From the NCBI GenBank assembly GCA_951406725.2, contig OX597831.1, positions 54,870,001-54,934,000 of the forward strand: 64,000 nt of DNA, given 5' to 3'. The DNA is from Octopus vulgaris. Lineage: Eukaryota. Made by a program: the position numbers and the translations under genes. This document shows, piece by piece, positions 37,780 through 64,000 of this stretch. The notes under the pieces were generated by a model, which saw only the letters and a program-made list of their open reading frames with translations, searched no databases and was not told where the DNA came from. Position 1 is the stretch's first letter; every line of letters starts with the position of its first letter.

Positions 37780-38010
37780 CAGGGATTGAATAAAAAATAA
37801 TCGAAACACCTTAAAATTTCAAACCAACATATTTTAATATGGGGTAGGTCAGCCTTTCGCAGTAATTACAGCTTGAATTCTATGATGTATGGACTTGTAC
37901 AAAGTTTGAATTGTTTCCAAATGAATTTTGTTTATTCTTCAGCTAAAACAGTCTCCACTTCTTGTAGTGATGATGGTGGAGGATATCGACTCCTTACTTG
38001 TTATTCTAAA
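37780..38010 (-). mobile_element. Tc1-like 3' end remnant
   Basis: TA|CAGGG terminus; minus strand reads [27 protein letters not shown], a Tc1-type C-terminus. Confidence 0.7.
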
Positions 38011-39384
38011 ATGCACCATAAACGTAGTTTTGTTTTGACGAGGAGGTTTTTCCCTCTTTCACAAAGGTTGTCATTACTTTCGAGACAGTACTTCTTGATA
38101 CACCAAACATTTCGGCTGTTTTCATGAAACCCCCCAACTAGGACGTCTTTATCGAATGCTGTTTACAATCATACCCATGGTTTTGAGGTGTGTGGAACCA
38201 CCACTTAGCCACTATTATTCTCGGGTCTCCATAAGCGGGTTAATTGGCATATTGGGGCTTATCTAAGTGTGTATGTGTTATGACGTGGGTATACACGTCT
38301 GGTGTAAAACGGTATCACACAAATTAATAGTTGGCTTTGGTTATCTAAAAATAACCTATCGCAGAAATATATGTTAAAACAGAACGCTCTCCGTACTACT
38401 CGAACGTAAGTATTCACTGTTCAAATACCGACTATTAAACCAACACACGTCGATCACGGTCGAACAAACACTATCAACTACTCCCTTGACAGTTCCCTAA
38501 GTTCTTATTTATTGTAATCGGTTAGTCACCCTTCAGTCACGCGTGGGTGTTCAGGATTCTCCCATAACAGTATGTGATCCGGTGGAATCTGCGGAAGAAA
38601 GCTTCATGCTTCAACGAGGAAGGCGGCTTCAACAAGGAAGGCTGCAACGCATTGTGGAGGGCCGAGAATAAGGTGAGACAAGTCAGATGTCTTGATCATT
38701 CACAGCATCCGACTCCATCCCCAGTCATCTTGGCTTGATCTTGCCATTGGATTGAAGTTAGTCACGGAGGGGAAAGCGAGGTTGACGGTGCGCAGTCCTT
38801 CTTCACTTTCAACAAAGTTACTGCGCAATTCATCAATCATTCCTTGAAGATGGTTAGACGGTCCTCGTCGATCCGACGGCAGACATATTAATCTCTCCTG
38901 GTTTAGAGTCGCGACTCAAGAAACTACAAAGAGCCCTAAAGGCTTTGATCATTCGAATCAACTTGGTTATTTTCCGGTTGACTTAACGCTGCTTGCACTG
39001 AAGCTATTGTTTTCATTTCTCAAAAGTCTCAAGTTTCAGAAATGTCTACTAAACTATGTTGTATGACCAGCATGCAGTTGATCTTAGTTGTGGTTGTGGT
39101 TGCGGTGGTGTTTAGCCACAGGCAAAGCTTATCAACCTACGATCATCAGCGTTCTAATCTACGATCAACAGCGTTCCAATCTATGATCAGCAGCGTTCCA
39201 ACTGCGAACACCCGATGTTTTATTCAACCATAGTGTATCTAGGACTACGTTACTCAATGTCTCCTTCAAGATTTTCAGTGAAGAATTTTTTGATTCGTCA
39301 TTTTCCATGTTGGATAATCCTTTCAAATGTACATTCTTTTAGTAGAAAAAAAAAAGAATCATGATTCTGCAGTTTTGTAGAAAA

Positions 39385-39558
39385 TTGTGTGATAAGTAGC
39401 TTCCTTACGAACCACATGGTTCCGGGTTCAGTCCCACTGCGTGCCACCTTGGGCAAGTGTCTTCTACTATAGCCTCGGGCCGACCAAAGCCTTGTGAGTG
39501 GATTTGGTAGACGGAAACTGAAAGAAAGAAGCCCGTTGTATATATGTATATATATATA

Positions 39559-39641
<83 letters not shown>

Positions 39642-39890
39642 TGTATGTATGTATGTATGTATGTGTATACGTTTGTGTGTCTGTGTTTGTCTCCCCCAAC
39701 ATCGCTTGACAACCGATGCCGGTGTGTTTACGTCTCCGTAACTTAGCGGTTCGGCAAAAGAGACCGATAGAATAAGTACTAGGCTTACAGAGAATAAGTC
39801 CTGGGGTCGATTTGCTCGACTAAAAGCGGTGCTCCAGCATGGCCACAGTCAAATGACTGAAACAAGTAAAAGAGTAAAGAGTAAAGAGAG
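39385..39890 (+). mobile_element. SINE family A copy
   Basis: Same head, body and tail as 9221, with an expanded internal microsatellite. Confidence 0.8.
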
Positions 39891-40494
39891 AGATACACAC
39901 ACACATTTATTTATTTATTTATTTATTTATTTAGTTAGTTAGTTAGTTAGCTAATTAGTTAGTTAACTAATTAGTTAGTTAGCTAGTTAGTTATAGGCAG
40001 TAAATCCTCAATTCGTTGGTTGGGTATCTATGATTGATCTATGTCTGGGAATTCTTGACATTAAATAGTAACATGGATTCACATGTTATACAAGTGTAAT
40101 GTGTGTGTATATGTACAAATATGTATGCACGTGTGTATGTATATGTGCGTGTGCGTGCGTGTGTGTGTGTGTGTGTGTGCGTGTTAATTGGATCACGGAA
40201 GTGAGTCAGCAGTACCCAAATCATCTCCAGTCATACCGAGACGTATGATGTCATAACTCCAGCTTCTGTCAGTTGCTGCCTGTAGGGAAACTGTGCGACC
40301 TAATTGAAAGTGTGGAGCAGTTCTATTTAGAACGGAGTCAATGTGTTTAGGAGTCTGATGTTTTGCAACATTCTTGTAAATGATGTTGGATGAAGTGGCG
40401 ACTACGTGGGGGGTATACACAGCTTTGTAAGTTCAAGGAAGGAGCAAGTGTAGCTACGAAAGAAGAGACAGAATATCAGGGAGGGGAGAGAGAG

Positions 40495-40557
<63 letters not shown>

Positions 40558-42484
40558 CAGAGACAGAGACAGAGACAGACAGACAGACAGACAGACAGAC
40601 TGGCAGAAACAGACAAACTGAAACAGAAACAGACAGACAATCAAAAACAGGAAGAAAGAGATGAAGCAAAATGGACTTGGGCAAAACATTTTAGCGTATG
40701 TATGTATGTATGTATGTATGTATGTATGTATGTATGTATGTATGTATGGGGGAGTGTAAAATTTGATACGAATGACAACCAAAAAGAGGAAAACCTACGC
40801 TCAAATATATACAAATATATACGTGATGTATGTGTGACATTATGACATCCAAATATATCTATCTATCTATCGATCCATCTATCTATCCGTTCGAGCAGCT
40901 TGTCCAGTCCAGTGCAACTGTCTTCCACGCCATATATCCTCAACTTGATATCCAATAGCTAATATTTATCGCCATTTAGAACAATCTATACTGCGGTAGA
41001 TGTAAACAAGAGTGCATTTTGCACCAAAAGCCAATATGAAAGCCAAGCCAATATGAGAGTTTTTCTCGTGACAGCAACTGCAGTATAGTTTGTCCTAACA
41101 ACATCTACGTTTAAGTGGGAATAAATATCACCTCTCGTTATTAAAATTGCCTCTTTCACTAATATACATTTGATATCCAATGTCTTCCACAAGCTGTACG
41201 ACGTATGCTCTCCTTGGTCTGCTGATACTTGATATATTCTCTCTCAATCCCATCAGCTTTAATCTTCCTAGTCATAACTTCGAAAGCACCCTAGATTCGA
41301 TGTTAACTCTCCATGATATCCATTCATCCTGCTACATCGATTTATTCTTTTGCTAGACACGAAAGGTTAAGCCTATATTTTATCGAAAGAGATTATTGAG
41401 ATACGATGTGCATGCTTTTCTCCAGTTATATTAGAGCCGTTGGTGAAGTGAAAAGACTTAACGGAAAACTGAACTGAAGTTTACCTCTTGTTCTGTGGCA
41501 TTGACTGAACATGAAAACTTTAAAATATTCTTCACTGCATCAAAATAAACTTTTTGTGGTTGTCTATGGTTAGGAGGACATGTTTTGGGCTTCGTCTGTA
41601 GTTGTGGCTAACTTTTGCACGGATCCCGTCAAAGAGTTTGTTGGATTTATAGCTTGTTTGCGTAGATCTGGGTTCGTATCTTAATTTTTCTATGAAAAAG
41701 TTCGCTTTTAGGGCTTCGTTCTATAATGCTACGACTTGGTCGAGAATTGCTTAGTCGGTTGATATCTTAAGAGGTTCCCCAGTTCTTGTTGCTGGCTATA
41801 ACTGCACAAGAAACCAAAATTGCGTCGTTCAAATATGTTTGTTTAATGGAAGAAATATGATGATGTCATATCACAGACACCAGAAAAAAATCATTTTTAA
41901 AACTCAGCCCGAATTACAAATGGAGTAAGCATCTGATAACACAACATCGTTGAAAACATGCACAACAATGCCAACAACTATGGAGCAACAAAATAAATTA
42001 ACCATTATAAAAGAATGATAATTTAAAGACAATAGATATAGAATACATTCAGCTATCAGCTCCAGCTTCCCAGCATATCAAAAACAACTTTGATGACTTC
42101 ATATTTATATAAATAATTATAAATAAATATTTTTTGCATATAATAATCAACTGACATATACCGTAAAGTTGCTGAAACTATAAGTGAAAAATAAACTAAC
42201 AACTTCAGCAAAAACAAATAAACAACTCCAGCAAAAGAAACAAAAACGCAGAACACACCTTAGCAATTAGCATAAGTGATTATACAATTGACAAGCAATA
42301 GGAGAATGACTCCTGGATTAACCAGTCGGAAACAATATACTGGTGAAATAACTTCTGAAAAGCATTTTCTCATAAACGGGGTCTGAAAAACAATATACAG
42401 ACAAATAACATAGAAAATGACTAACGAAAAATAGAACAACGAAACGAATTTGCAAATGAAACGACAACAAATGAAACACTCTTT

Positions 42485-42884
42485 TGCTCTCTTTTACCCT
42501 TTTGCTTGTTTCAGTCATTTGACTGCGGCCATGCTGGAGCACCACCTCTAGTCGACCAAATCGACCCCAGGACTTATTATTTGTAAGCCTAGTACTTATT
42601 CTATCGGTCTCTTTTGCCGAACCGCTAAGTAATGGAGACGTAAACACACCAGCATCGGTTGTCAAGCGATGTTGGGGGGACAAACACAGACACACAAACA
42701 CACACACACATATACAATATACGACAAGCTTCTTTTAGTTTCCGTTTACCAAATCCACTCACAAGGCTTTGGTCGGCCCGAGGCTATAGTAGAAGACACT
42801 TGCCCAAGGTGTCACGTAGTGGGACTGAACCCGGAACCATGTGGTTGGTAAGCAAGCTACTTACCACACAGCCACTCCTGCGCC
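42485..42884 (-). mobile_element. SINE family A copy, full length
   Basis: Reverse complement of the family A consensus. Confidence 0.8.
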
Positions 42885-43448
42885 TATGATAACCATAGAT
42901 AATAAAAAATATCTGCATTAATGTATATAAACAATTCGAGATACTAAGAGAAGACAGTTTTAACCTAATGATAGAAGTTTCGTGAAACTCGAGTCATACA
43001 ACAGTGAATCATTCAACCACGGTAGTGGTTGAATATATTCTTAAGTCCACCATTTCGTCAATTGCAGCAGCTTCCAAGCTTCACCACTAATTCAGTTCTC
43101 AACTAAATTGCAAACTGTTAATAGTTTTAAAGAGGACACTTCCTCATCTACACTTTGGCATAAATAGTTTGAGATTTGGTTCAGTAGAAAAAAAAGTTAC
43201 ATCAAAATATGTCAGTTCTAAAAGTGGGCAGTATTGACCTTCAATTAACATAATTTTTTTTTAATTTTAAAATAAAAGTATACTTTTCTTGAGCTTAAAT
43301 GTTAGAGAAATGCATGCGGAATTCAGAATCGTTAGTCACATTGAACAAAAATTAGTAGTAAAAGAGTTATGAGGTGAAATGTTACAAAATTTCATGTCAG
43401 TAAGTAAGGCATTGGGGTGTAACGCCCTAGCAATAAGAATAAACCCTA

Positions 43449-43890
43449 GCAGAAACGTTAGCACGCCGGGCGAAATGCTTTGCGGTATTTCGACTGCCGT
43501 TACGTTCTGAGTTCAAATTCCGCCGAGGTCGACTTTGCCTTTCATTCTTTCGGGGTCGATTAAATAACTACCAGTTACGCACTGGGGTCGATGTAATCGA
43601 CTTAATTCGTTTGTCTGTCTTTGTTTGTCCCCTCTGTGTTTAGCCCCTTGTGGGAAGTAAAGAAATAGGTATTTCGTCTACCGCTACCTTCTGAGTTCAA
43701 ATTCCGCCGAGGTCGACTTTGCCTTTCATTCTTTCGGGGTCGATTAAATAAGTACCAGTGACGCACTGGGGTCGATATAATCTACTTGATCCGTTTGTCT
43801 TTCCTTGTTTGGCCCCTTGTGGGTAGTAAAGAAATAGGTATTTCGTCTTTCTTTAAGTTTTAAGCTCAAATTTCCCCGGGGTCGACTTTG
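43449..43890 (+). mobile_element. SINE family B with one head and about 2.5 tandem bodies
   Basis: ggtatttcg restarts at 43484, 43668 and 43837. Confidence 0.75.
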
Positions 43891-46403
43891 ATATACAGAT
43901 TATTTAATTAATTGTTTTTCAACTAAACTCTTTCAAACTTCCGATACTGGTAGAATATGTCACATAGAACAGGGTTTATTCTTAACGTTTTTGACAAAAT
44001 TTTGTATTTTAGAAGCGGTATTTCGTCTATCTTTACGTTCTGAGTTCAAATTCCGCCGAGGTCGACTTTCCCTTTCATCCATTTCGGATCTATTCAATTA
44101 GCTGTACAGATTAATTAATTAATTTTTTTTAACTAATTGTTTTTAACTAAACACTTTCGAACTTCCGATCTTGTAGAATGGGTTTATTCTTAACGTTTTT
44201 GACAAAATTTTGTATTTTAGGAGTTATTTCGTCTGAAGTTACAGAGTGACAATGGACAAATTCGTGTTTGATAAGTGCCAATAACGAAACTCTCAGCTTT
44301 TTACTTACTCCCTAACTTCTGCCGATGATATATATACATATTACATATATGAGTAAATAAATCTCATCACGCAATCGAACCAATGACAGAGCCTCTACCT
44401 GGTCGCTCGACACGCTAAAAATAGCAGTCAAAGTATCCCACTACCTAAATCACACGCCCATTGTATGTAATATCCTAGATTATCCCTAAAAAGACGGTTT
44501 GCTGAAGGCTGGAATGTCTTTGATGATAGGTTTGCAGTATCAGGGTTTATTTGAGGCTAAATAACAACATTAGGTCAATGTACGAAATTGTAATTTATAT
44601 ATTTTACTATATTTAGCTGAGTGTCTAATGTTCCTAAGTTCAAATTCCAAATGGGCTCAACTTTACTTTTAATTTCGTTGGAGATCTATAAATTCTAAAA
44701 ATATATCGTATTTTAATTTGATAGAATATATTCTCACCACAGAATGTGTAACGATTGCAGAATATAGTTACAATGTATAACTACGTTCTGGGTTCAAATT
44801 CCGCCGAGGTCGACTTTGCCTTCCATCTTTTTGGGGTCGATAAATTAAGTACCAATTGCGTACTGGGGTCGATTTAATCGACTGCCCCCTTTCCCCCAAA
44901 AGAGTAGAAAAGCATATTGAATAAAATGCTTTGCAGCATTTCTACCAACTTTACGTTCCGAGTTCAAATGCCACCGAGGTCGATTTTGCCTTTAATCCTT
45001 TTGGGGTCGATAAAATGAATACTAGTTGAACAGTGAGGTTATATAATTGACTAAACACCTCCTCCAAAATTTCTAGCCTTATGCCTGCAACAGAAAGAAT
45101 TATTTCGTATCAAAACAGCGAATTGGTTGAAACATCAGCACGCCGGACAAAATGCTTAACAACATTTCGTCCGTCTTTATATTCTGAGTTCAAATGCTGC
45201 AGCGGTCGACTTTGCCTTCCATCCTTGCAGAATCGATAAAATAAGTACCAGTTGGGCACTGGAATCGATGTAATCGACTTACCCCGTTCCCTAGAATTGC
45301 TGGCCTTGTGTCAAAGTTTGAAATCACTATTTTGTAGTGCGTCAGTAAACTGGTGTCCGTCGGTTTCAGTGATGAGTATTCAGTCAGTCAATGGAATCTT
45401 GTTAATTGTATTAGCATGTAAGGAGTAAATGACTCTTCCCCGGTGGAATCAACGGGACAAGACTGAACCTTTAAAAATTTCAAGTGACCCGATGCTACAT
45501 TTAAAAAAAAAAAGAAGAATAAATAAAGAATCACTTGTCCAACATCCCCCCCCCCAGTGGAATCGAACTTAAGACATCATGATTGCAGAATCAAATTTCA
45601 TAACTATTCGGTCATGCAGTTTATTTATACAACAGCGACAACAACTGGCTAGAGTTCCAGTTGATCTGATCAACGGAATAGCCTGCTCGTGAAATAAACA
45701 ACAACAATACAGTAAGCAATAATGCCAACATATTTGATCTTTGTACAATCGAAATAAGACACACATTTATCTACTTCCGTTTTCTATAGATAAAAATTCC
45801 AATTTACAACAGGTTTTTATTTATTTATTTATTTATTTATTTTCCTAATATCTGTTTTCTGTTTATTTTTAGTATTTTGTTTTCGCTTCTTTCTATGCTA
45901 TTTACGACCTTCCGTCAACCCAATTCACACTGGTCACACGGTCCACCACGTAACTGACTGCTTTGTCTCCACCTCTTCTGATTACACGTGTTTACCTGTA
46001 GTATCCTGTTTCTTCTCGCTACGTATGTTTAATTAGCTCACCTGGTTACACGTGTCTAATTTTTTTGTCTCCGCCCCTTCTAGCTACATGTGCAAAATTG
46101 TTGCTCCGCCTTTCCCGACAATGCGTAGAATACTTTTAATTGCAATTCAGTTGATGTAATAATGATAACACGTTTTCATAGAAATAATAGAAGTCTCGGA
46201 CTAAATGTTTCACAGAATTTAGTGTCGCCTCCTTCCACTTTTCACATTACTCAATTCGAATGATTCATTCGCAATGTTCTGATTCATCCTTTCGCTTTCC
46301 CATTCCAAAAGAAATCCTCAAATCTTTAAGGGCCAATCCCTTATTTTGAAGAAACAGCACATGGACAAAGACAAAGAAAAATGTGTATGTATTAGCGAAT
46401 GTG

Positions 46404-46404
<1 letters not shown>

Positions 46405-46456
<52 letters not shown>

Positions 46457-46968
46457 TGTTTCTTTATTAGCCACATAGGGCTGCACACAGATAGAACAAA
46501 TTACAAGGTAAAGCTTTTCTTTTGAAGGGTTAAAAAAAAAAAAAAAAATGAAGGGGGGAGTTTCGATCAAAAGGGATCGTAAAAGGAGAGAAAGAGGACA
46601 AAAAAGGGGGGGTTAAAAAAAAAGGGGGAGAGGAAAAAGAAATTGATCAATAGGGATCGTTATCACAGAAATGTCAATATGGAGTGTAAAGGGGAGGACA
46701 GGTGAGGTTTACCCGTGGAAAGAAAAGCCTACGGAAAAGACCACGGTAACCTCGGTCAATGAAGTCACATTTTATATTTCTTTTTTTTTTTTTTTTGCAA
46801 ATAAGCAACTCTCTGTTTTCGATTTCTGGGTTCATAGGACTATGCTCAAGGTGGCTTCGTCATTCATACGTGCCATTCTTGCTACATTCACCCATCTTTT
46901 TTTAAAACATTCGCTAGCCAAAACTTGCCTCTCTACTCTCACTTTCCTTTTCAAGTGGTACTAGATAT

Positions 46969-47027
<59 letters not shown>

Positions 47028-47300
47028 TGTTTCTTTATTAGCCACACAGGGCTGAACAAAGACGGGACAAATTACAAAGTAGAGCTTTTCTTTTGGGGGA
47101 GAGAAAAAAGTGGAGTAGGTTTTCGATCAAAAGGGATCGTAAAAAGGAAAGAAAAAAAAACGATCAATAGGGATCGTGTATCACAGAAATGTCATGGTGT
47201 AAAGGGGGAAGCAGATAAGGTTTATCCGTGGAAAGAAAAGCCTACGGAAAAGACCACGGCAACCTCGATCAATAATGTCACATGTTAACACATTTATTTG
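46405..47300 (-). mobile_element. Two adjacent 3' ends of a LINE-like element with (TATC)n tails; third copy at about 52880-53200 (+)
   Basis: Shared gtttctttattagccac...gaaaagcctacggaaaagaccacgg block next to (GATA)n. The first copy keeps an ORF end YHLKRKVRVERQVLASECFKKRWVNVARM (L1/Tx1-like by inference). Confidence 0.6.
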
Positions 47301-48839
47301 CACATACACACACACACACGTGAATAAAGAAAAATAGAGCGATAAAGAGAACCGATGTTGTTCAAAAGAAATTCATTTATTTAAATCAATGACATTACAA
47401 AACCGAATTTCATTACTGTTATTCTATTAAATGGTTCTTATCACGATTTAGGCAAATACGATGAGGTCTTTTTCACTAATAGAAAACTCATAAAGTTAAA
47501 CCCTTCATCGTTTCGTTTTACTGAATTTCGACAATGTTTCATAAATTGATATCACCGTAAATATATTGTCTGCCATTTTATTTCATCGCGAGTCAATACA
47601 TTATCATTGAAGTCATTGTGACGGTTAAAATTATTGTTATAGCTTTTTCCCTTTTATTTTATTAATTATCTTCTTTTTTTTTTTGTTATTTTTAAAGTAA
47701 AACCATTGCTTAACATTATTTAAAGCAGTGTTTCTCTATCATTTTTTAACTATGGATCCCTTTGATCCCTATTACTCGGATGAACCCTCCTAGCCTGAGG
47801 GTTCATCTATCGATCAATTTTGCCGAACCGCTAAAGCACGGGGACGTAAACACACCAATGCCGGTTGTCTTGTCAAGCGGTGGTAGGGGCAAAAACACAC
47901 ACGAAGACACTCCCCAGCATGGCCACACCTTAGGGCTGAAACATGTATAAAAGAATATATACACAACGGGTTTCCGTCTACCAAATAGACTCACGGGGCT
48001 ATATAGTAAAAGACATTTGGCGAAGGTGCCATGCAATGGTACTGAACTCGAAACCATGCAGTTGGGAAGCAAAATTCTTGCCACACAGCCACTCCTGTTT
48101 GCATTCCTCTTCAATATGCTAAATATGAATAAATATATCATATACTAGCCATTGATTGCCTGTGTATGCTTTTGTTCTGTTATACGTAAAGCATACTTTG
48201 ATTCTGTTTTGGCCGTTCAATCGAAGTGTGTTGAACTAAAGACAAGGAAAGTTTGTGTTTTGTTTGATTTAACATTTGCAAAAACATTGGTTCTTTTCAC
48301 TTGGTGAAAAGATCCGGTATTTTTGTAGAGTGATTGGTTCATACCCAGTATAGCTTGATTATTTCATCAAGCTCGAAAGTACAACTCGGAAACAGGGAGA
48401 AAGAGCAAAGCACTATAATGTAATATTTAATTCAATATTAAGGCGGTAAGCTGGCAGAATAGTTAGTACACCTGGTAAATGCTTAGCGGCATTTCGTCCG
48501 ACTTTAGGTACTGAGTTCAAATTCCGCTGAGGTAGTCTTTGCCTTTCGTCCTATCGGGGTCGACAGAATAAGCACCAGCTGAGCACTGGGGTCGATGTAA
48601 TCGACTTACCTCTTCCTTCAGAACTGCTGGCCTTGTGCCAAATTTTGAAACCAAGTTTTAATTCAGTAGTTGTTTAGCTCAGGACTGCCCTAAATGGAAG
48701 TCTGCTATAGCCTTTTTGCCCTTAGTGTATCCAGGACCACATCATCTTGGATAAAAAAAAATTTATTAGCTGTTTTTATACCACCAGAGCGAGTGGATGA
48801 AGGGACATTTGATTGCTATTTCTAGCAAGTAGAACGGCC

Positions 48840-48889
<50 letters not shown>

Positions 48890-49350
48890 CAGCGCTTTGG
48901 CAAGTTGGCATTTCTGCTAACTCAAAGGACAAGCAAAAAAAATGAAAAACAAACAAATAAAATGTTTCTAAATTATGATACACAGACCATCCGATTTGAA
49001 ATGAAACGGAAACAAAATGGCCATGTCCTTTTTTGTTCCTTGCAGATATGTGCTGACGTTATAAATTTATTTTTATGACAATTGTTGATAAGTTATGAGT
49101 AATGCAAAACTCCTTTTGTTTCATTTTTAATTCTTTATTGTGTACGTTAAGCATTTCCTGACCTTTCCTTAATTTCGACGATGGAAGAATAAGACATTTT
49201 ATTACATATTTGGGAATAAAAGCGCGAAAGAAATGAAGTAGTATGCAGACCGCCGCGCCCGGTTGTTTGGTTTTTTTTTTATTGTTTAGTTGTTTCAATT
49301 ACACAAAAGACAAAAGACCATTTTCGTCTACGCGCGCGCGCACACGTTTG

Positions 49351-49358
49351 TATATAAA
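49351..49358 (+). promoter_or_regulatory. Candidate TATA box for the LPMO gene
   Basis: TATATAAA in unique sequence, just after a CpG-rich patch (cgcgcgcgcg), about 180 bp before a cag|GTAACA donor at 49537. The acceptor at 52420 requires an upstream non-coding exon. Confidence 0.45.
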
Positions 49359-49380
49359 GTTAAGAATTCCAAATTATTCT

Positions 49381-49536
49381 GTAGTCTGCAGACGACCACA
49401 ACAGAACTATTTATTAATATTTTATATCTATACACATTCTTTTTTCACTCAGTTAACTTTTCTCATTTAATTCCATCTACCAATTAATTTTATCTCAACA
49501 CCAATCGTTTCGCAGCAGTCAGAGAAATCTTCTCAG
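49381..49536 (+). other. Candidate non-coding first exon of the LPMO gene
   Basis: Begins about 30 nt after the TATA motif and ends at a CAG|GTAA donor. Start coordinate is approximate. Confidence 0.4.
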
Positions 49537-49559
49537 GTAACAAGATAAACTTCTCTATC

Positions 49560-50480
<921 letters not shown>

Positions 50481-50725
50481 TACCAGCATATCTATCTTTC
50501 TACCAGCCTATATATATTATCATTTACTTCTTTCAGTTATTAGACTGATGACATAAAGAACCTTTAGCCGAATGAATTGACCCTAGTACTTTTTTTTTTA
50601 TTTTTAAGTCTTATACTTATTATATCGTTCTATCAGTTTCTTTTACCGACCGCTAAGTTACGGAGACGTAAACACGCCAACACTGGTTGTCAAGTGGTGA
50701 TGGGGGACAAACACACACGCACGCA

Positions 50726-50781
<56 letters not shown>

Positions 50782-51103
50782 TATAGTCAGGTTGATCACT
50801 CGCTAAAGTGGCACCTCTCTTTTTTCTACTCCTTTTTATCATCATCATCATCATTATCACCACTACCTCCACAATCACCACCACCATCACCATCATCATC
50901 ATCGCTGTCATTAACATCAACATCCCAATCATCATCATCCTCATCATTACTATCAAGATATATTTTTAATTTAAAAAAAAATTTTTCCGAATATTTTCAG
51001 TATCATTAAATGAAAGATAAAAATGTGATTTTTCTCTCTCAATTTTTGTAACGAAGATACCTTTATACTGACCCCTATTCTTGTGTGTGTGTGTGTGTGT
51101 GTA

Positions 51104-51159
<56 letters not shown>

Positions 51160-51225
51160 GTGTGTGTGTGTGTGTATGTATATGTATATATATATATATA
51201 TATACACACATACATATATATATAT

Positions 51226-51274
<49 letters not shown>

Positions 51275-51438
51275 GACATACACACACACATATATATATA
51301 TATAAATTTAAAATAATAAGGGTGAAAAATTAAATGTTAATTTGATCAATATCAATTTAAAACCAGTGGTCTAGCATATTAAAATATGAAGATTCAGAAA
51401 AATTATATTACATACATATAGTATGTAGGGTCATCCCT

Positions 51439-51487
<49 letters not shown>

Positions 51488-51721
51488 CTTGTTTCACCAA
51501 TATATTTTTGTGAGTTACTAGCCTGATGCGATGAAAACAACTCGGACTGTATTTTATAACCCGTCTGGTGTCTTCACGTAATCACCAAACGAGTTATAAA
51601 ATGCTTTTCTGGGCTGTTTTCATCGCATGAGACTAACCGTTTAGTAAATAATATTTATCTCTCACCAGATGGGTTATTTTTTTTTTTTTTTGTTGATCTT
51701 ACCATCACAAAACAGTGCACT

Positions 51722-51774
<53 letters not shown>

Positions 51775-52469
51775 ATCACGTGACCGACCAGGCTATCAGA
51801 TGTTGCTAAACATCGCTGGTCACAATGCGCTTCGCACTGTTTTAGCCTTCAAATGACGCCACCCCGCTGGTTAAGCGAGCAGGCCTACAGAAGAAAGAGT
51901 GAGAGAAAGTTGTGGCGAAAGAGTGCAGCAGGGATCGCCACCACCCCCTGTCGGGGCCTCGTGGAGCTTTAGGTGTTTTCGCTCAATAAACACTCACAAC
52001 GCCCGGTCTGGGAATCGAAACTGCGATCCTACGACCGTGAGTCCGCTGCCCTAACCACTGGGCCATATATAATGCATTTAAAATTACACTCTTAATGGGA
52101 AGGAAAATCATTAATATTGATATGCAAAGGGATAACTCAAAAATTTAAATTAAGAATTACATGGAGCCGTGTAATGAAGGCAGAGCCTGACCTTTAGTAA
52201 GTATGACAACTTTGGATATGTTTCGGTATTATTAGAACTTCTCAGCGAATTATCTTCTTTGTACTTAGCAGATCTTAGAATGACTCTAAAAAAATATAGC
52301 TTCTATGCACAAATTCTTTACTGATTATGTGATTTACCATAATGATATTAGAAAAATGTTCCTGTTAGTATAGCTTGTTTTTAGTGAATACTAAATTAAA
52401 CTATTTATTTTTTTCTTCAGATTTTCAACGAATAAACTGCATATTACGTTACGAAAACCGAACATAATA

Positions 52470-52658
52470 ATGTCGCGCACAAAGAATATGTCACCATATA
52501 CCCTACTACATTTATTACTTGTACTCGTCGTCGTGTACTACGTAGAAGGACATGCTCGTCTCCTGCGACCCCCATCGAGAGCTTCACTATGGCGTTTTGG
52601 CTATAATGTGAGAAACAACAATTACAATGACAACGAAGGTTACTGCGGTGGAAGAGAG
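52470..52658 (+). CDS. AA15-family LPMO (chitin-binding type-4 domain), coding exon 1: signal peptide plus His1
   Basis: ATG at 52470 (alternative in-frame ATG at 52488). Hydrophobic signal LLHLLLVLVVVYYVEG is followed directly by H-ARLLRPPSRASLWRFGY...YNDNEGYCGG, the AA15 N-terminal pattern (His codon 52551-52553). Acceptor ttttcttcAG ends at 52420; donor GTAAGT starts at 52659; 63 codons, phase 0. Confidence 0.92.
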
Positions 52659-52840
52659 GTAAGTAATTGCTAACAGTTTCCCTTTCTCTTGTTTGTTTGT
52701 TTGTTTCTCTTCCACTCCCTCTACCTCTGTCTGTCTATCTATCTATCTATCTATCTCCCCCACCCCAATAAAGGTGGGTGAATGTAGCAAAGATGGTGCG
52801 TGCGTGTGACGAAACCACTTTGAGCATGATCCTGTAAATC

Positions 52841-52882
<42 letters not shown>

Positions 52883-53169
52883 ACTTTACTCTCATGTGTT
52901 TTATTCCCCCCCCCCGCCTGGGGTTACCGTGGTCTTTTCTGTAGGCTTTTCTTTCCACGGATGAACCTAATCTTGTTTATTACTTTAAAAAAAAAATTTC
53001 TTTCTGTGATACACGATCCCTTTTGATCGCTTTTTTTCCGATCCCTTTTGATCGAAATTTTACATTTGTTTCCTATTATTTTTTATTTTCCTTTTCTATC
53101 TACGAAAAGAAAAGTTCTACATTTGTATTTGTCCCCTCTGTGTCCAGCCCTGTGTGGCCAATAAAGAAA

Positions 53170-53201
<32 letters not shown>

Positions 53202-53243
53202 CCCATCTCTTTCTCACTGTTCAATAACCCATTTATAGGTTAA

Positions 53244-53629
53244 CTAGCAGTATCGCCCGGCATTGCTCGGGTTTGTAAGGGAAATAACTATAAAGCATTG
53301 TTAGAGAGTTATAGCCAAAAAATAGCAAAAAAATGGAAAAAAAATAATGGTAAATTTTTTTCTGAGAGTAAAAAAGGTCGAGTTGCGTCCCCTAGACAGT
53401 CTGTGGTTTGTGTTTCTGATTCTCGACCCCATGTCGAATTTATCGATTGTTTTTCAGAACTGGGGGAACTTTTCAAAATTTTCGCTGCATTAGTTTTGAA
53501 TTATGACATTGGGCTATGTGTGTGTCAAGTTTCATCAGAATCAGTTGAAAGCCGTGGTCAGGGTGAGGGTACAACTTAACAGACACACAGACACGCACAC
53601 AGACAAACTGCCGTTTATATAGAGAGAGA
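53244..53629 (-). mobile_element. Non-autonomous Helitron in the LPMO intron
   Basis: Minus strand starts TC(TCTCTCTATATAAACGGCAG) and ends with hairpin cccgagcaatgccggg then CTAG; inserted between host A and T. Confidence 0.75.
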
Positions 53630-53754
53630 TTTATAGGTTACTGCGATGTTGTTTTAGGTCGCTTTACTGGCTTTTATTATTATGTAATAGAACCACACAT
53701 GTGATGGTATCCCACTGTTGTAATACAGTGAGTTGAAACAACTTCCATTACTCT

Positions 53755-53970
53755 CTCTTTTACTCTTTTACTTGTTTCAGTCATTTGACTGCGGCCATGC
53801 TGGAGCACCACCTTTAGCCGAGCAAATCGACCCCGGGACTTATTCTTTGTAAGCCCAGTACTTATTCTATTGATCTCTTTTTGCCGAACCGCTAAGTGAC
53901 GGGGACGTAAACATACCAGCATCGGTTGTCAAGCGATGGTGGGGGGACAAACACAGACACACAAACATAT

Positions 53971-54043
<73 letters not shown>

Positions 54044-54192
54044 CGACGGGCTTCTTTTCAGTTTCCGTTTACCAAATTGGTCGGCCCGAGGCTATAGCAG
54101 AAGACACTTGCCCAAGGTGCTTCGCAGTGGGACTGAACCCGGAACCATGTGGTTGGTAAGCAAGCTACTTACCACACAGCCACTCCTGCGCC
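53755..54192 (-). mobile_element. SINE family A copy in the LPMO intron
   Basis: Reverse complement of the family A consensus. Confidence 0.8.
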
Positions 54193-54667
54193 ATTAGCTG
54201 ATTTTATCCAAACAATTTGCAGGCAATAATTCCTTGTAAGATCAGTTAAAATCTAAAAACAACAAGCATGAGAGATTATTTTTAATAACAATCAAATAAG
54301 TGAACTTTTTGAAAAACATAGACAGTGCAAAATAAGTGGAATGACAACTAGTGAAACCAACGGACATGTTTCAATCTTATTAAACGTCTTCAGTTAACCA
54401 TACTCTACTCAGAGAAGCTTTGAAATTATCAGTATGTATATATAGAAATAGAGGGAAAGGGAAGCTGATTGTGCTGATTACGATTATCAGGAATGTGGCT
54501 GTGAGTCAGTAACTCAGAAAAGGGTTCTGTATTCTAAATACAAATATACTTGAGTCTCACATGTGTAGTATAGCGAGTTCAAAACCTTCAAGTAATTGAT
54601 GCAGTTAGTAGACAAAACCTGTCTCTCTTTCCTTTTCTCTTTCTTTCCCTTTCTCCCCTTTTCTTTC

Positions 54668-54708
<41 letters not shown>

Positions 54709-56063
54709 CCTCTTTCTCTCGTGAGTATATCTCATTTGATACCAACCCGCTTGAGACTGTTCTTAACCTCCTATGACACAAACTTCTTGTTTTGAAATGA
54801 TTTGATATACAATTTTCAAGATTTCAAAATAATTTATGTTCAAAACACCAGCTCACGATTATTTGAAATTTGGTTGGCGGGGACTAGTCGATTACATTGA
54901 CTCCAGTGTATCACTGGTACTTAATTTATCGATCACGAAAGGATGACAGGCAAAGTCGGCGGAATTTGAACTCAGAACGTAGCTACGGGCGAAATACTGC
55001 TAAGCATTTTGCTTGGCATGCTAAAGATTCTGTCACTTCATGATAGAGACAGGATCTCCGGGAGAAATTTTGCATGGCAAAACAAAACTGTTTTCCCCAT
55101 CCCAGTGACGGTTGTGGTGAGGGTGGACGTCTCTCAAAATTCAAGTGCGCTTGGAAATTTTAGCTGAGAGAAGGGCCTACCGTCAGTTACGCACATGGCC
55201 TAGTGGTTAGAGCAGCGGACTCGCGGTCGAGGGATCTCGAGTTCGAATCTCAGACCGGGCGATGTGTGTGTTTATGAGCGAAACACCTAAGCTCCACGCG
55301 GCTCAGGCAGAAGGTAATGTGGAACTTCTGCTGACTCTTTCGCCTCAACTTTCTCTCACTCTTTCCTCCTGCATCTTGCAGCTCACCTGCGACGGGCCGG
55401 CGTCCCGTCCAGGTGGGGAACCTATACGCCAAGGAAATCGGGAAACCGGCCCTGATGAGCCAGGCATGGCTCGAGAAGGAACAAACAATATAAAAACAAA
55501 CGCATGGGCTTTCTCCATGGCTCTCCGAGCTCTGGGTCCGATATACCCACTGTCTCGCGCCCTACTTGCATAGGTTTGTAGAGATAGAGAGAGATGGAGT
55601 TAAAGCGAGTAACATTGTACTTGCTACTGTCGTTGGGGATGATGATGAGGATGATGATGATGAGGATGATGATGATGAAAGTTGTAGGGGTCGTAGGTAT
55701 GACGGATAGGAAGTGCGTGGGTGGGGTTAGAAATTGGAAGGGCGCTAATGGCGGTGGCGATAGTAATATCTGTGGCTGTAGCAGCCAAGTTACGTGATGC
55801 AACCCTCTTCTAACTTTTAGCAAACAGCATATTTTTTTGTTGTTTTTGGTTTATTTTTAAATGTGTGTGTGTGTGTGTGATTCAGTAAAGACACAGTTTA
55901 AATATATGCGAGTTCATAGAGTCCGTTAGTGACGGTGGCATTCAAATATTTGGCTTTACGTTCGTGATGTTTCTAAAACTTATTCTTAAATTCGAGATCA
56001 GGTGTTGTCTTTGGTCCGGCTTCCTGCAACCGAAAGGGTAATCTATAAAAATAGTAGCACTTC

Positions 56064-56127
<64 letters not shown>

Positions 56128-57221
56128 GTGAGCGTGTGTGTGTGCGTGTGTGTGTGCGTGTGTTTGTGTGAACGCGTGTGTGTGTGTTATGTGTGTATAC
56201 ATATATGCAAATGTGTATACGTGCGTATGTATGTATGTATGTATGTATGTATGTATGTATGTGTGTATGTGTGTATGTATGTATGTATGTATGTATGTAT
56301 GTGTACATGCATTTTTGTTTGTATGTATGTATATCCGAAAGACCAAATGAAAACATCATGTACTTTAAATAGACATCTAAAATGATTTAACGACAAATCA
56401 TGCTTTTCTATTTCGAAAAGATGACAGATCTCCGTGGAGCATCCGCTGTTTGACATCCACACATTCCAAATATTTACCTCGTTCTTATCCAACCCGCATA
56501 CCTACCAATCTACCTATTTACCAGCCTTTCTATTAACCTATCTACCTATCAAACTACAAACCTACCTACCTACCTGCCTATACGAACCAACGGGGAGACC
56601 TGGCAGAATGTCTCCGTGCCGGGAAAATAGCAGCATTTATTCCGACTTTACGTTCTGATTTCAAATCGCTCCGGGGTCGACTTTGCTTTTCATCCTTTCG
56701 GAGTCGATAAAATAAACACTAGTTGAGCACTGGGGTTAATTAATTGACTTTGACACTCTTCTAAAACTGCTGTTCTTGTGCCAATATTTGGAACCAATAT
56801 AATCAGAAATCATTAATATGATATCTTATTATATAATATAGCTGGTTAGAAGTAAGTATAATATATAAAACTTTGAAGGCGGTGAGCTGGCAGAAACGTT
56901 AGCAAGCCGGGCAAAATGATTAGCGGTATTTCGTCTGTTTTTACGTTCTGAGTTCAAATTCTGCCGAGGTCAACTTTACCTTCCATCCTTTCAAGTTCGA
57001 TAAATTAAGTATCAGTTGCGTACTGAGATCGATCTAATCGACAGATCCCCTCCCAAAAAATGTCGGGCCTTGTACCTAGAGTAGAAAAGAAGACATAAAA
57101 CTTTGATTACATGTATCCATAGTCTTGGAAAACCTTGGCAATGATATAAGCAGAAAGATTTCCAATTTGTGTACTTCTCTTGCTTTTGGTTTCAGTTTCG
57201 TTTTTTTTTTTCTTTTTCCAG

Positions 57222-57639
57222 GCGCTTATTCACAAATACAATGGATTATGTGGCGTCTGTGGAGACCCGTGGGATCAAAATCCACGGGACCATGAAAGGG
57301 GTGGAAAATATTATGAAGGATTCATAACAGCAAATTATGAGGAAGGATCAACAATTACAGCTGCAGTACAAGTAACTGCTAATCACAAAGGTTATTTTGA
57401 ATTTCGAATCTGCCCTTACGATAACCCTAAAGCTGGTGATATTGAATATTCAAATGGAAGCGATTTTGTTGAAGTTAGTCAATCGTGTTTGAACAAACAT
57501 CTGTTAACCATCGGTGAAACTAATGACACCAAATATTACATCCCACACACATCACCAGTTATGCTTAATAATATCTCCCTCAAACTACCAAGTGGTGTGG
57601 TCTGCAACAAATGCTTATTCCAATGGACGTACATAACCG
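57222..57639 (+). CDS. AA15-family LPMO, coding exon 2 (second brace His)
   Basis: Polypyrimidine tract and cAG end at 57221; phase 0 matches exon 1. Encodes NGLCGVCGDPW, HERGGKY, TANHKGYFEFRIC (His codon 57384-57386) and LPSGVVCNKCLFQWTYITG. Donor GTAAGT at 57640, phase 1. Confidence 0.95.
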
Positions 57640-60600
57640 GTAAGTACAATTGTCTGTTACCATGCATTAAATAAAAGAAGGCAATAATATCGGTATATTA
57701 AATTAAAAATGGTTTTTAATTATAAGTAATACTGAATTTCTAAATCTCTCGTAGAGACATGTACGGTGGTGGGGCGATAGAATGGTTGAATACTGTCAAT
57801 CTAACACGAACGTGACAGTAGGGGAGTACACCACCGCTGTATAGCCCTAGGAAGCATCGAACGCCTCCTGATGGCTTTGACACATTTTTCCCTGTGTCCT
57901 TATATACATTTACGAAGGGGATACAAACACCCATGATCTAAAAAATCAACATAGCCCTATTTTATCAGGTTTTTGAAAAAGGTTGTTTTGTTTTGTTTTA
58001 CATTGTTATTTTCCTTAAAGGAAACTATATAAATAAGGCATGTTCTAAAAGTACTTTCAGCGTTAAAGGTTTCGTGGTGGTTGTGTCGTTGTCTCTTAAT
58101 CCATTCGATCTTTGAGATACTACTCATCGCTCTGTTAAGATTGCACGGAACTTGAAGCACAGACCAGAAAGCTAATGAAACACTTGTCAGTTGTATGTTA
58201 CTGTTATTGCAGGTATCAACTATGAAAGTGATGTAAAGCAGCGAATTGGCAAGTTCGTTAGCGCGCAGGGCATAATTCTCAGCATTATTTCGTTCGTCTT
58301 TACGTACTGAGTTTAAATTCCGCCGAGGTCGACTTTGCCTTTCATCACTTCATGGTAGATAAAATAAGTGCCAGTTGAGTACTGGCATCGATGTAATAGA
58401 CTAGCCCCTCCCTCGAAGTTACTGGCTTTGTGCCAAAATTTGAAACGAAATATATTTTCATGATATAAATTGGTGCTAAGATAGCTTTTTGTCCTCGGTT
58501 TGTAACTAAGCAAGAGATACAATACAAACTATAATGAATCCTGAGCGAGATATGAATGGATGCATAGATCTTCGTAGTTCGACCGTGAGTATTCAATTTT
58601 ACCTAGTCGTCAAATTAACGTGGATGACTATTCGTAGACATATGTATCTTTAAAGTAATTCTGAAGAAGAATCAGTGTAACACATTGTACAGGTACAATT
58701 AATCCGACAGACTTCTATGCAGTTCCCATCAACCCAATTTTCACTCAGAAGGTGACTGGGCACTCCGTCGGTTACGACGAAGAGTGTTCCCAGTCGATTC
58801 AATCAACGGAACAGCCTGCTCGTGAAATTAACTAACAAGTGGTTGAACACTCCACAGACACGCTTGCCCTTAACGTAGTTCTCATGGAGATTCACATGAC
58901 AAGGCTGGCCCACTGAATTACAGGTGCTACCCATATTTGCCATCTGAGAGGACTGGAACAACGCGAAATAAAGTATCTGACACAAGGGCACAACGCACTG
59001 CCTGGAAGCGAACTCACAACCTTATGATCATGAGCCGAATACACATACAACACCAGGCGCATTCACTTTCACAAGGTATTGGTCGAGCCGGAGCAAGAGA
59101 AAACGACAATTGATCACAACACTTGCAATAAGATTAAACCTGGGAACCCGAGGTTGCAAGAACAAGATAAAAACGCTAAATGCATGACACTGATTTTATT
59201 TTTAATGGTTTAGTTTGAGGAAGAAAGGTAGCGCTAGTAATTCCCTTCTGGGCCTTGGTAGTTGATGGGAAAAAAGGAGAAAAATATTTTCAGATCAGTG
59301 ACCAGGACCCATTGCTTGCAAAAGAAGGAGCTCTGCTAAAAAGGACTCAAGGGTCATTGGTGAAGTTATTGATACAAAGATATTGATACCAGTAACTTAA
59401 TCAAAACTGAGCCATAACTGTGCTTTCTAAGTTTCAAATTGCTGAGGTGGAAACACAGAAGCAGTCATGGTTGCGTGGTTAAGAAACCCGCTTTGCATCC
59501 ACACGGTTCCAAGTTTAATCTTGCTGTGCAGCACCTTGTGCATTTTACTATAAACGAACCAATACCTATTTCTTTACTACCCACAAGGGGCTACACACAG
59601 AGGAGACAAACAAGGACAGACAAACGGATTAAGTCGATTATATCGACCCCAGTGCGTAACTGGTACTTATTTCGCCCGGCGTGCTAACGTTTCTGCCAGC
59701 GAACCAATACCTTTTAAGTGAATTTGGTAGACAGAAACTGTGTGGAAGCCCGTCATATATGTGCATGTGTATGCGTATCTTTGACAACTGCTGTCGGTTT
59801 GGTTTAGGTCCCCGTACATTAGCGGTTCTGCAAAAGAGACAGGCTTAAAAATTAAGTACTGGAGTCAATGATTTGTTCGACTAAATTCTTCAAGGCTACA
59901 CCTTAATGTCTAGACGGACCTGAAGCAGACTTAGAGTAAAGAGGGCATGTCATTAATAGGATCTTAAATGACGGCGAAAAAACTTGGACAAACCTGATTG
60001 ATCGATTGCCCAAAAGATTAATCAAACAATCAATTAGTTAATTGGTTAAATGGTCTACCAATTAATAAATAAGTAATAAAAAAAGTAAAAAAAGAACTAG
60101 TGCATGAGTTTTAGTTGGTTTTGCCCTAGGTCAACGCTGACTGGGCAGATGCATGCCTAAAGATGTCTGCAAGCCGTGATCAACCCGTCCTTTAAACAAT
60201 GTAAGATTAGATTATCTTGTGTCCTTTCGTTATTTAAAACCCAGCCGAGAGTGATTTGAAGGTGATTTAGTCAATACATCCAGCAGGTCATTACGCTGTT
60301 TAAGAATTTGGACCTGGAGATCTCCATTTCCAGCGACTTCTAGGGCCACCTCCCAGTGGTGTCGGGCGTCAACGAAGAGCCCTCGACTACAACAAGACGA
60401 CCAAAGTGCTTTTTTTTTCCAAGGTCTGGGGTGTCCCGCCCCTAAGCCCTAGACCATCACCTAATCACCCTTACCTGTCTTGTTGCTTAACAACAACAAC
60501 AGCAGGTCATTACAAAGAAATATAGACGTCTGTGGGGAAGGGAGTTGTTCTTTTTTTGTTTTTTTGTGGGTTTTTTTTTTTTTTGTCTTTTTTGCAAAAT

Positions 60601-60692
60601 AGACCTTCGACGTGGTTTCTGATATTTCCTCTTTATGCCTTCATGAAAATAAAAAAATATTTACACTGTGTCCTATTTTATTTCCAATCCAG

Positions 60693-60944
60693 GTAATAGC
60701 TGGGGTCGGTTTCCAAACGGAACGGCTTGCATTGGATGTGGGCTACAAGAAACATTTAAAGCTTGCTCTGATGTTATCATCAACCCCAGATCGAACGGTA
60801 GCACGACGTCAACACCACCTGCATCCACACAGTCTACCACAAAGTCACCAAATACCGAACAGAGCACAGAACAGAGCACAGAACAGAGCACACAACTACT
60901 CAGCAATTCGCCGACAACTGAAGGAACAAAATGGAGAGCAACAG
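60693..60944 (+). CDS. AA15-family LPMO, coding exon 3 (end of catalytic domain plus Ser/Thr linker)
   Basis: Acceptor tttccaatccAG ends at 60692; phase 1 completes the Gly codon. Encodes NSWG...CIGCGLQETFKACSDV, then a S/T/P-rich linker. Probable donor GTTGGT at 60945 (phase 1); otherwise the frame reads to TAA at 60959-60961. Confidence 0.9.
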
Positions 60945-61654
60945 GTTGGTTTTTAATGTAAAACATTACATATTTACGTGCATACATAGATGCATGCATT
61001 CATACATACATAACACACACACAACGCACACAACCATACAGATTCTTAAAAAAAAAAAGACTCCGCCGGTTACGACGACGAGGGTCCCAGCTGATACGAT
61101 CAACGGAACAGCTTGCTCGTGAAATTAACGTGCAAATGGCTGAGCATTCCACAGACACGTGTACCCTAAACGTAGTTCTCGGGGATAATCAGCGTGACAC
61201 AGAGAGTGACAAGGCTGACCCTTTGAAATACAAGTACAACTCATTTTTGCCAGCTGAGTGGACTGGAGCAACGTGAAATAAAGTGTCTTGCTCAAGGACA
61301 CAACGCGTCGCCGGGAATCGAACTCACAACCTTACGATCATGAGCCGAATACCCTAACCACTAAGCCACGCGCCCTCACATACAGATTCTTACATGCATA
61401 CACACATACACACACACACTCAAACAGGCTCACACACATATATGTATGTTTGGATAAATGGGTGCATATTCTTTTATTCTTTTACTGGTTTCAAGTCATT
61501 TGACTGTGGCCATGCTCGAGCACCGCCTTTAGTCGAGCAAATCGATCCCAGGACTTTGTAAGCCTAATACTTATTATATCGGTCACTTATGCCGAACCGC
61601 TAAGTTACGGAGACGTAAACACACCAATATCGGTTGTCAAGTGATGTTGGGGGA

Positions 61655-61698
<44 letters not shown>

Positions 61699-61709
61699 AT
61701 CTGTAGTAT

Positions 61710-61783
61710 AATACGTGACAATTATTTGCTTGCCATAATAAAACTCCGAGTTTCGGATGTCGGGGCGGAAAACTGCTCTGGCA

Positions 61784-61853
<70 letters not shown>

Positions 61854-61879
61854 GCTAAATGGAGCTTGCATGTCCGAGA

Positions 61880-61885
<6 letters not shown>
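61710..61885. mobile_element. Rearranged Penelope-like remnant of the 20690-22400 family
   Basis: Inverted half of the 22241 hammerhead, then (TA)n, then ccgctaaatggagcttgcatg (PLNGACM) matching 20993. Confidence 0.65.
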
Positions 61886-61943
<58 letters not shown>

Positions 61944-64000
61944 GAGAGAGAGAAGAGTGAAAATAATTAATTATAAATTCACGAAACTTTTTTTCTTGAA
62001 AATTCATTGGAAAAGGAGTGGGTACATGAAACTTTAGGGAAAATACTTAAATACCATGTTTGCCATTTTTACTACTTTGAAGGATGAAGCAGACAGCAGG
62101 TCAAAGTTCAATAGTCGACAGAATGCAATTACGTCGAATAGCATTTAGTAGCGTTGTCAATAATAACAGAGCTCAGTCTTCTCTTATAACTTTACAATAT
62201 AGAATGACTAGAGAGTACAAGACAGTTCTCTAAACAAACAAACTGAATAATGTACGTTGCTTTCTGGAGGAAATTAAACTCGCATAACGAGTTGAAATTT
62301 GATCTACGAACGACGAACAAACAACGCATACGCATAAGTGAGTGGGACCCTAGCGAGCTGTAATGTGAACAACAAACCACGAAAACCACGAGAAAACTAT
62401 ACACACATGTAAGTTCTGAGAGTACATATATAAACGGTACCTCAAATGAACAAACTGTATAGCGAACAGTTTTTCTGGTGAAATTTATATTCAGCCAATG
62501 AGTTGAAATTTGAACAAACTACGGCTAGACTAAGCACGCATATAAGTGTCTGTGAGAGTGTATACAAATGTTTCGTTAACGTTCATGTACACATTTCATA
62601 TAGCTTGCAAATTTTCATATTTTATATCAAAAATAAAATTTCTCATTTCTGATTTAAATTTTCTTTTTAAACCATAACCATGATTCGACAGAATCAAGAC
62701 AAAAAGGGGGAAAATACGCCCATACGAGCAGATATATATGTATTTGCTATTGATGAACAACTAAAACATCCTTTCATGTCGTTATGTGGAGTTTAGCTGT
62801 ATCTTGGAACGGTTTACCTCTATTTATATGTATCTTGGAACGGTTTACCTCTATTTATATGTATTTCAGTTACTTATCTGACGAACAATCTGTTTAACGA
62901 ACAGGGCTCCGAAATGGATATGTTCGTAAATACTGTAATAAGTTACAAAACTAATTAGAGCAGAAAGAAACTAACACTAATTTGAATCTGACTGCATTAA
63001 AATGTTGGATGTTGGTGATGATGGTAAAGACGATGTCAATGGCAACAACTTCTAATGAAACTAATACCACATAATCGTAAGCAGTTACAAATCGTGACAA
63101 ATTTCTGATAAAGATATTCTATCAATGTGTTAAGTGTGTTGACACTCATTCCCGTGACAATATTGACAAGAGCAAAAACATTAGAGATATTGAAGTAAAG
63201 TATACATTAACTTGCTTAATACGTAATCATGGTAACTCTAAATAACCAAGACTACCACAAAGAGGTTAACATTTTTTATTCAAATTAACCGAAAGAAATA
63301 CACACAAAATTAAAAAATATATATTTTTGAACTGACTTAATGTATCAAAGTGTAAATTAAATATAAATCAGGAATCAGTAAGGATAATGAGAAAAAAGGC
63401 TAGTTTGAATCTTAGCTGGGAAGATAAAAGAAACTCTTTATGATGCAGTCTGTAATATGCTTCTGTAATATTTGTTCTTGATGAGAGCACTTCATTATCC
63501 CATCAAGTATTGACAAGTAGTAAATGTCACTACACAGTATTCATGGTCTCTGGGTCTTCCTGAATGGCACACCTCTTGAACAATTACCTTGAATTATTTT
63601 AGCAGTTATGATGATGCATGTTTTATGTGGCCCACTTCTCAGAGAAAGTTGCCCTTGCTGGTCTACAGCTCGCTCACCAGTTCCTTTTGTACCCTTATCG
63701 TTTCCTTTACCCACTTCTTGTCCAGTGTGGTATCTGGCTAGAGTTTCACACTGTTTGAGTTTTTGAAACGTAAACACAGTTGGCTCCAATGTTATTAGCT
63801 CAACTAATCATAAATGTTGTTGAATGTTATTGAGGGCGGAGATGTATTCTAGTTTGTTCATTATATCAAAAGCTATTAAAAACGTCAGTTTTATGTTGGC
63901 AGCATGTATCATCAAGTTTAATTTCATGATAAATAATACATGCAAATATACCACAATATCAAAAATTGCATTGATCAGAGAATAAATAATTCAATGACAC

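Follow-up and report, generated by a model that had tools for sequence, protein, structure and literature searches.

Does the genome of Octopus vulgaris encode a working lytic polysaccharide monooxygenase (LPMO) of family AA15, and on which chitin would such an enzyme act? The question is raised by a gene in 64,000 nucleotides of forward-strand DNA from this species (NCBI GenBank assembly GCA_951406725.2, contig OX597831.1, positions 54,870,001 to 54,934,000), a stretch referred to here as the window and numbered from its first letter. The reading that is favoured, and that as a whole seems rather likely, is that the locus is an intact, spliced AA15 gene for a putatively secreted, copper-binding protein expected to nick crystalline chitin, its substrate being the animal's own chitin linings. 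Such a gene is to be expected in an octopus, since AA15 was reported in molluscs when the family was defined in 2018 (PMC5823890), with five Octopus bimaculoides entries in the defining set (Sabbadin 2018 Supplementary file 8; PMC5823890). A survey that includes O. bimaculoides has reported an LPMO expansion in mollusc genomes (PMC7560691). Octopus AA15 genes are not new, and the protein adds one more member, with an ordinary active site, to an established family. The novelty implied in the first-pass annotation of this DNA was overstated in view of those five entries; no characterised cephalopod AA15 enzyme or other LPMO was found in the open-access literature, which misses most subscription papers.

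A spliced gene of at least five exons

Three coding exons, at 52470-52658 (phase 0), 57222-57639 (phase 1) and 60693-60944, join into a single open frame with GT..AG at all borders, within sequence that is AT-rich and full of repeats. Sequence words from the middle one, exon 3 in the numbering used below, are present in 20 of 24 listed sequencing runs, and four of those 20, from four studies, were aligned; that the runs are RNA is a guess, none of the 24 being recorded as such. Introns 2 and 3 are both skipped exactly at GT..AG in contigs of all four runs, the exon pieces listed from them are identical to the window, and their match ceases at 60944, directly 5' of a GT. Two contigs run on past this point for about 2.7 kb, in an extension absent from 51000-64000, and the Octopus sinensis protein goes on at the end of exon 4 with an Asp whose first base is compatible with the G at 60944. 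In a second alignment, three of the four runs stop at both edges of exon 2 and have a common upstream loose end; the fourth, which is very large, reads through both edges without splicing and is likely a genomic control. The loose end matches the window once, at 33918-33947 (its last 30 letters only; none of 100 shuffles), and a donor GT follows at 33950. Because the loose end finds its match before a donor and the contigs run on past 60944, the gene must comprise five exons or more, all on the forward strand and spliced as mapped here.

Exon 1 (33709..33949) is non-coding; its end is exact, and its start is presumed from the 237-239 letters that are left loose in two of the runs. Intron 1 (33950..52420; 18,471 bp, GT..AG), recognised from the loose-end match and its donor, leads to exon 2 (52421..52658), which is delimited by contig edges and the open frame and holds a 49-nt leader, the ATG at 52470, a predicted 27-residue signal peptide (52470-52550), the His1 codon (52551-52553) and Tyr25. 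Beyond intron 2 (52659..57221; 4,563 bp, phase 0), exon 3 (57222..57639), identified by frame, contigs, Pfam and PDB match, supplies the core of the AA15 domain with Ala89 (57378-57380) and His91 (57384-57386). Intron 3 (57640..60692; 3,053 bp, phase 1) is followed by exon 4 (60693..60944), mapped by frame and contigs, which carries Trp179 (60701-60703), Glu195 (60749-60751), Phe197 (60755-60757), the end of the domain and the start of a Ser/Thr linker. Judged by the contig ends, intron 4 begins with the donor GT at 60945 and occupies the rest of the window (60945..64000), so that the remaining coding exon or exons lie beyond it. Residues 283-394 of the O. sinensis protein have no tblastn match within the window, and neither a paralogue next to the gene nor a tail exon was found there with 86 homologues, whose tblastn matches were confined to the three coding exons; Rfam gave no hits.

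The first-pass annotation had described three phase-matched exons encoding His1, Ala89, His91, Trp179, Glu195 and Phe197, and its positions proved exact; the junction check that it proposed is borne out by the four runs, so far as they are RNA. Its three exons are the coding exons of the window, while the gene itself is larger and includes the non-coding exon that ends at 33949. A three-exon model with a stop at 60959-60961 was rejected, as all four runs stop matching at 60944 and the O. sinensis protein continues there. Also set aside was the motif TATAAA at 33680, some 30 nt upstream of the presumed start of exon 1; its surroundings are AT-rich repeats, and it has a frequency of 0.9 per kb over the window. 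That the whole arrangement might be dead or due to chance can draw on the lack of any recorded RNA run among the 24; it is largely refuted by the spliced contigs, with their exact intron skipping, as well as by the open spliced frame, the unspliced contig of the very large run and the conservation of orthologues, and deserves almost no credence.

Two side observations concern the same exons. At position 52466, four bases 5' of the start codon, two of the four runs (labels B and C) have T for A, a change absent from two label-A runs. In a related cluster (P0002), the short forms P0035, P0037, P0039 and P0040 end directly after the part matching exon 3 of the window; these are probably intron-retaining or partial contigs, and they point to an intron at the corresponding place in the relative.

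Catalytic domain, linker and tail

The mature chain, numbered from the His that follows Val-Glu-Gly, contains His1, Tyr25, Ala89, His91, Trp179, Glu195 and Phe197, as well as ten cysteines within the domain (32, 46, 49, 100, 125, 164, 167, 188, 191 and 200); ten conserved cysteines are reported as a feature of AA15 (PMC5823890). That the family match is not one of chance follows from the score of exon 3 alone against Pfam PF03067 (45.2 bits; cut-off 23), from that of a full-length relative (E 1.1e-15) and from the fact that TdAA15A of the firebrat Thermobia domestica (PDB 5MSZ) is the sole PDB sequence match (E 1.6e-40), exon 3 alone reaching E 2.3e-22 against the same enzyme. An AlphaFold2 model, in which domain and tail are confidently predicted and the linker is not, matches this structure with a Foldseek E of 1.8e-20 (next match 2.6e-6) and a VIA Z of 27.9, at a root-mean-square deviation of 2.1 Å over 193 residues and 39% identity; the next best VIA family lies at Z 14.8 (AA13/AA10). 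The alignment sets Trp179 on firebrat Tyr166, Glu195 on the Glu before the axial site and Phe197 on Tyr184.

Homologues, here and below, are the best 120 and the best 150 matches of searches seeded with the branch to which the octopus protein belongs, and clusters among them hide members. Across 301 aligned domains among these listed matches, the majority state at each site is that of the octopus protein (H1 in 266, A89 in 251, H91 in 295, W179 in 247, E195 in 288 and F197 in 277). The leader has a hydrophobic core and Val-x-Gly ahead of the His, and the 233 listed homologues with a recognisable start have Gly at -1 in 190 cases and Val at -3 in 147; a cut of the 27-residue leader after Val-Glu-Gly is predicted, which would free His1. 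Membership of AA15, an octopus origin and an intact predicted copper site, in line with the first-pass annotation, are supported by these comparisons of sequence and predicted fold and by the O. sinensis match described below.

The comparison drawn there with TdAA15A, which has an axial Tyr, has to be replaced, better comparators being the chitin-only enzymes TdAA15B and OfLPMO15-1, in which an axial Phe and a surface Trp take the places of Tyr184 and Tyr166. The octopus protein fits this type with Phe197 and Trp179. Enzymes with the Phe/Trp pair are reported to have oxidised chitin and not cellulose (PMC9156745; PMC5823890), and the octopus protein is, with high probability, a chitin-active enzyme. 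It has in common with both firebrat enzymes the (predicted) fold, His1/His91, Ala89, the ten cysteines and a leader that is predicted to end before His1 (PMC5823890), and with TdAA15B the axial Phe; it differs from them in an extra insert of 12 residues and in two further parts that the firebrat enzymes lack, the Ser/Thr linker and the six-cysteine tail.

The nearest known protein, O. sinensis LOC115219724 (XP_029645797.1), is annotated only as uncharacterised, with Pfam PF03067 already attached. The product of exon 3 is 100% identical to the corresponding part of it, and 281 of 286 residues agree over all that the window encodes; at 235 its Lys is replaced by Arg in the window, which also has four additional linker residues. 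The two are thus one gene, in a single species or in two sibling species. The O. sinensis protein (394 aa) consists of a leader, the catalytic domain, a 121-residue linker (45% Ser/Thr) and one six-cysteine module. Of the protein implied by the three exons alone, then, the AA15 domain stands, and the linker continues to a six-cysteine tail beyond the window. Within the linker, at 60850-60900, lies a short tandem repeat of EQST units, of which the window has one more than the O. sinensis protein.

Against a profile of nine crustacean six-cysteine modules the tail scores 35.3 bits, a value reached in none of 500 Cys-fixed shuffles, and by this measure it is related to them. It forms a single module with spacing 15-3-4-4-3, which leaves the strict double motif of insect group I unmatched. 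Modelled alone (42 residues) it is confident, with a predicted local distance difference test score of 86.7; no match to its fold was found in PDB sequences, Foldseek, VIA-align or the ESM Atlas, and Pfam returned a weak unrelated hit for one of 16 members and otherwise none. At 42 residues, this lack of a structural match is no evidence for a new fold. Its CxxxC-helix/CxC pattern was presumed to resemble defensin-type folds, a likeness that found no support. The module also exists as a long array by itself, in a protein of 1459 residues (P0183) with about 20 copies and no LPMO domain, and a six-cysteine tail of oomycetes, X473, is described as confined to Saprolegniales (PMC8393829).

Insect group I LPMO15-1 proteins (TcLPMO15-1, LmLPMO15-1 and OfLPMO15-1) are another close comparator: they share the active-site Phe/Trp pair, and their six-cysteine modules are related to the octopus tail (PMC9156745; PMC12955341). 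As reported, however, they carry two tandem modules of the form C-X15-C-X3-C-X6-9-C-X4-C-X1-C, as against the single octopus module, and the catalytic domain is the longer one in the octopus. Two crustacean double-module proteins group with another gastropod clade (99/98) and not with the octopus protein, in a tree that contains no named LPMO15-1 and is weak at its deep nodes; single module and tree placement leave orthology to the insect moulting enzyme unsupported. The gastropod clade in question comprises very long heterobranch snail AA15s (P0006, P0010, P0090 and P0093), grouping (99/98) with the crustacean P0174 and P0177, and it is possible, from this placement, that these are the mollusc orthologues of the insect moulting LPMO15-1.

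An octopus and gastropod branch and its candidate roles

The loop between Cys100 and Cys125 has 24 residues in the octopus protein. Of the 297 domains with both cysteines among the matches listed, 254 have a loop of 12 residues, and 17 share an acidic pattern in a loop of 24-25; a further two long loops bear no relation to these. The 12-residue acidic insert is modelled by AlphaFold2 as a beta-hairpin and lies approximately at 57432..57467 (mature residues ~107-118, counted from the Ala89 codon). The 17 rows represent nine distinct clusters, nine of the rows coming from one of them. Named carriers are O. sinensis, Patella caerulea, three Haliotis species, Nucella lapillus, two Elysia species and Candidula unifasciata, and two clusters that carry no species name could be of any taxon. 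With class labels assigned by hand from species names, and with most rows of the second set (best 150) lacking a name (4 named), the insert is carried by 6 of the 49 named gastropod proteins among the matches listed and by none of the 44 bivalve and 2 chiton proteins named there. Each named species has one insert-bearing cluster there, which is not a genome-complete count.

Trees were built with the whole Cys100-Cys125 loop left out. FastTree placed the carriers on one side of a branch with support 97 (293 of 301 rows, seven near-copies and one short row having been dropped), and IQ-TREE recovered the same carrier branch at 100/96 from 64 hand-picked rows. In the latter tree, rooted by midpoint only, the octopus protein groups with the two unnamed clusters (100/94), and this group is the sister of six gastropod rows (100/99), a topology that is the one expected for orthologues. 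The protein belongs to a well-supported old branch, marked by the acidic insert and named only from octopus and gastropods; no description of such a branch was found in the open-access literature. The seven complete insert-bearing domains all keep H1, A89, H91, W179, E195 and F197, two further rows being partial. This retention, and the presence of all site residues in the octopus protein, weigh against a protein that binds chitin or copper without cutting, turned by its insert or glycosylation sites into a matrix component. That idea, which is very improbable, could draw on the N-glycosylation sequons, five of which lie in the part of the mature chain encoded by exons 2-4.

In the proposed mechanism, His1, His91, Ala89, Glu195 and the axial Phe197 would form a site for one copper ion, held between His1 and His91, and Tyr25 and Trp179 would lie at the edges of a flat chitin-binding face. 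With a reductant and O2 or H2O2, the enzyme would oxidise chitin, and not cellulose, at C1, and the oxidised chains would be opened for chitinases, as extrapolated from TdAA15B and OfLPMO15-1; the Ser/Thr linker and six-cysteine tail may keep the enzyme on its substrate. The weakest step is the target, which is suggested to be feeding-tract chitin, namely that of the radula, beak and cuticle of oesophagus and stomach. An orthologue is retained in Patella, Haliotis, Elysia, Candidula and Nucella, whose diets differ widely, from grazers and sap-feeders to a land snail and predators. Among the roles suggested in the first-pass annotation (beak, radula or gut chitin, or crustacean prey), this spread of orthologues favours those on the animal's own chitin over prey. 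Because the carriers' diets are so varied, because octopus oesophagus, crop and stomach are reported to be lined with cuticle (PMC9501996) and because no bivalve carrier is named among the matches listed, the animal's own feeding-tract chitin is favoured and, for an enzyme that is chitin-active, is the somewhat probable substrate.

Several points weigh against this. As chitinase is reported in octopus posterior salivary gland and saliva, digestive gland and stomach (PMC9501996), there is room for a digestive use, in which the same active site would, after secretion into saliva or gut, degrade crustacean shell together with chitinases, and the firebrat AA15s are described as digestive (PMC5823890). 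Digestive insect AA15s are, however, reported as expanded, bare catalytic domains, and the octopus protein has a tail; a shipworm's own AA15s are reported to be low in the gut (PMC8561940). The single insert-bearing cluster per named species also speaks against prey digestion, which is unlikely, as does the persistence of orthologues in grazers and sap-feeding sea slugs. The evidence from insect moulting is not directly transferable, since the two crustacean double-module proteins fall elsewhere in the tree than the octopus protein. The link to the radula is limited by the chitons, which bear a radula and are represented by two rows only, neither with the insert.

Another of the animal's own structures, such as the periodically shed sucker lining or the shell-gland remnant, might instead be served by a chitin-active AA15. 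Octopod sucker surfaces are reported to be chitinous, with a lining that is renewed (PMC8688392), and insect relatives with the same Phe/Trp pair to be required for cuticle shedding (PMC9156745). The branch nevertheless includes gastropods, and the insert is missing from all 44 named bivalve proteins among the matches listed, though bivalves make shell. Gastropods have no suckers, and this alternative is decidedly improbable. A bolder extension of the feeding-tract reading, put forward tentatively and more doubtful than not, is that the branch is an undescribed AA15 orthologue group, marked by its acidic beta-hairpin insert and predating the cephalopod-gastropod split. Molluscs with a radula or jaw would have retained this group, bivalves would have lost it together with the radula, and it would supply an oxidative enzyme devoted to making or recycling the chitin of radula and beak.

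Surrounding repeats, and significance of the gene

Elsewhere in the window, a broken mariner/Mos1-type DNA transposon occupies 12929-13824 on the reverse strand; its matches to HTH_48 (E 2.3e-20) and to Transposase_1 (E 6.2e-21) lie in different frames, and these account for both of the Pfam hits obtained in 12 tested window frames. Mariner-like looking pieces at 274-1077 and 27646-28077 gave no Pfam hit, nor, at E 0.001, did 17408-17881 (-), 20696-21190 (+) and 29347-29824 (-), which we take to resemble pieces of Penelope-type retroelements and of which two are located in the 64 kb on the upstream side of the gene. The introns of the gene within 51800-61650 contain long microsatellites and numerous interspersed repeats at which the summed depth of contigs is very high, the latter presumably octopus elements of the short interspersed nuclear element type.

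The gene offers a clean starting point for what, by the open-access literature, would be the first cephalopod AA15 enzyme to be tested biochemically. If it is true that its branch is tied to radula or beak, it would also provide a specific, testable gene for the turnover by molluscs of their hard chitin tools.

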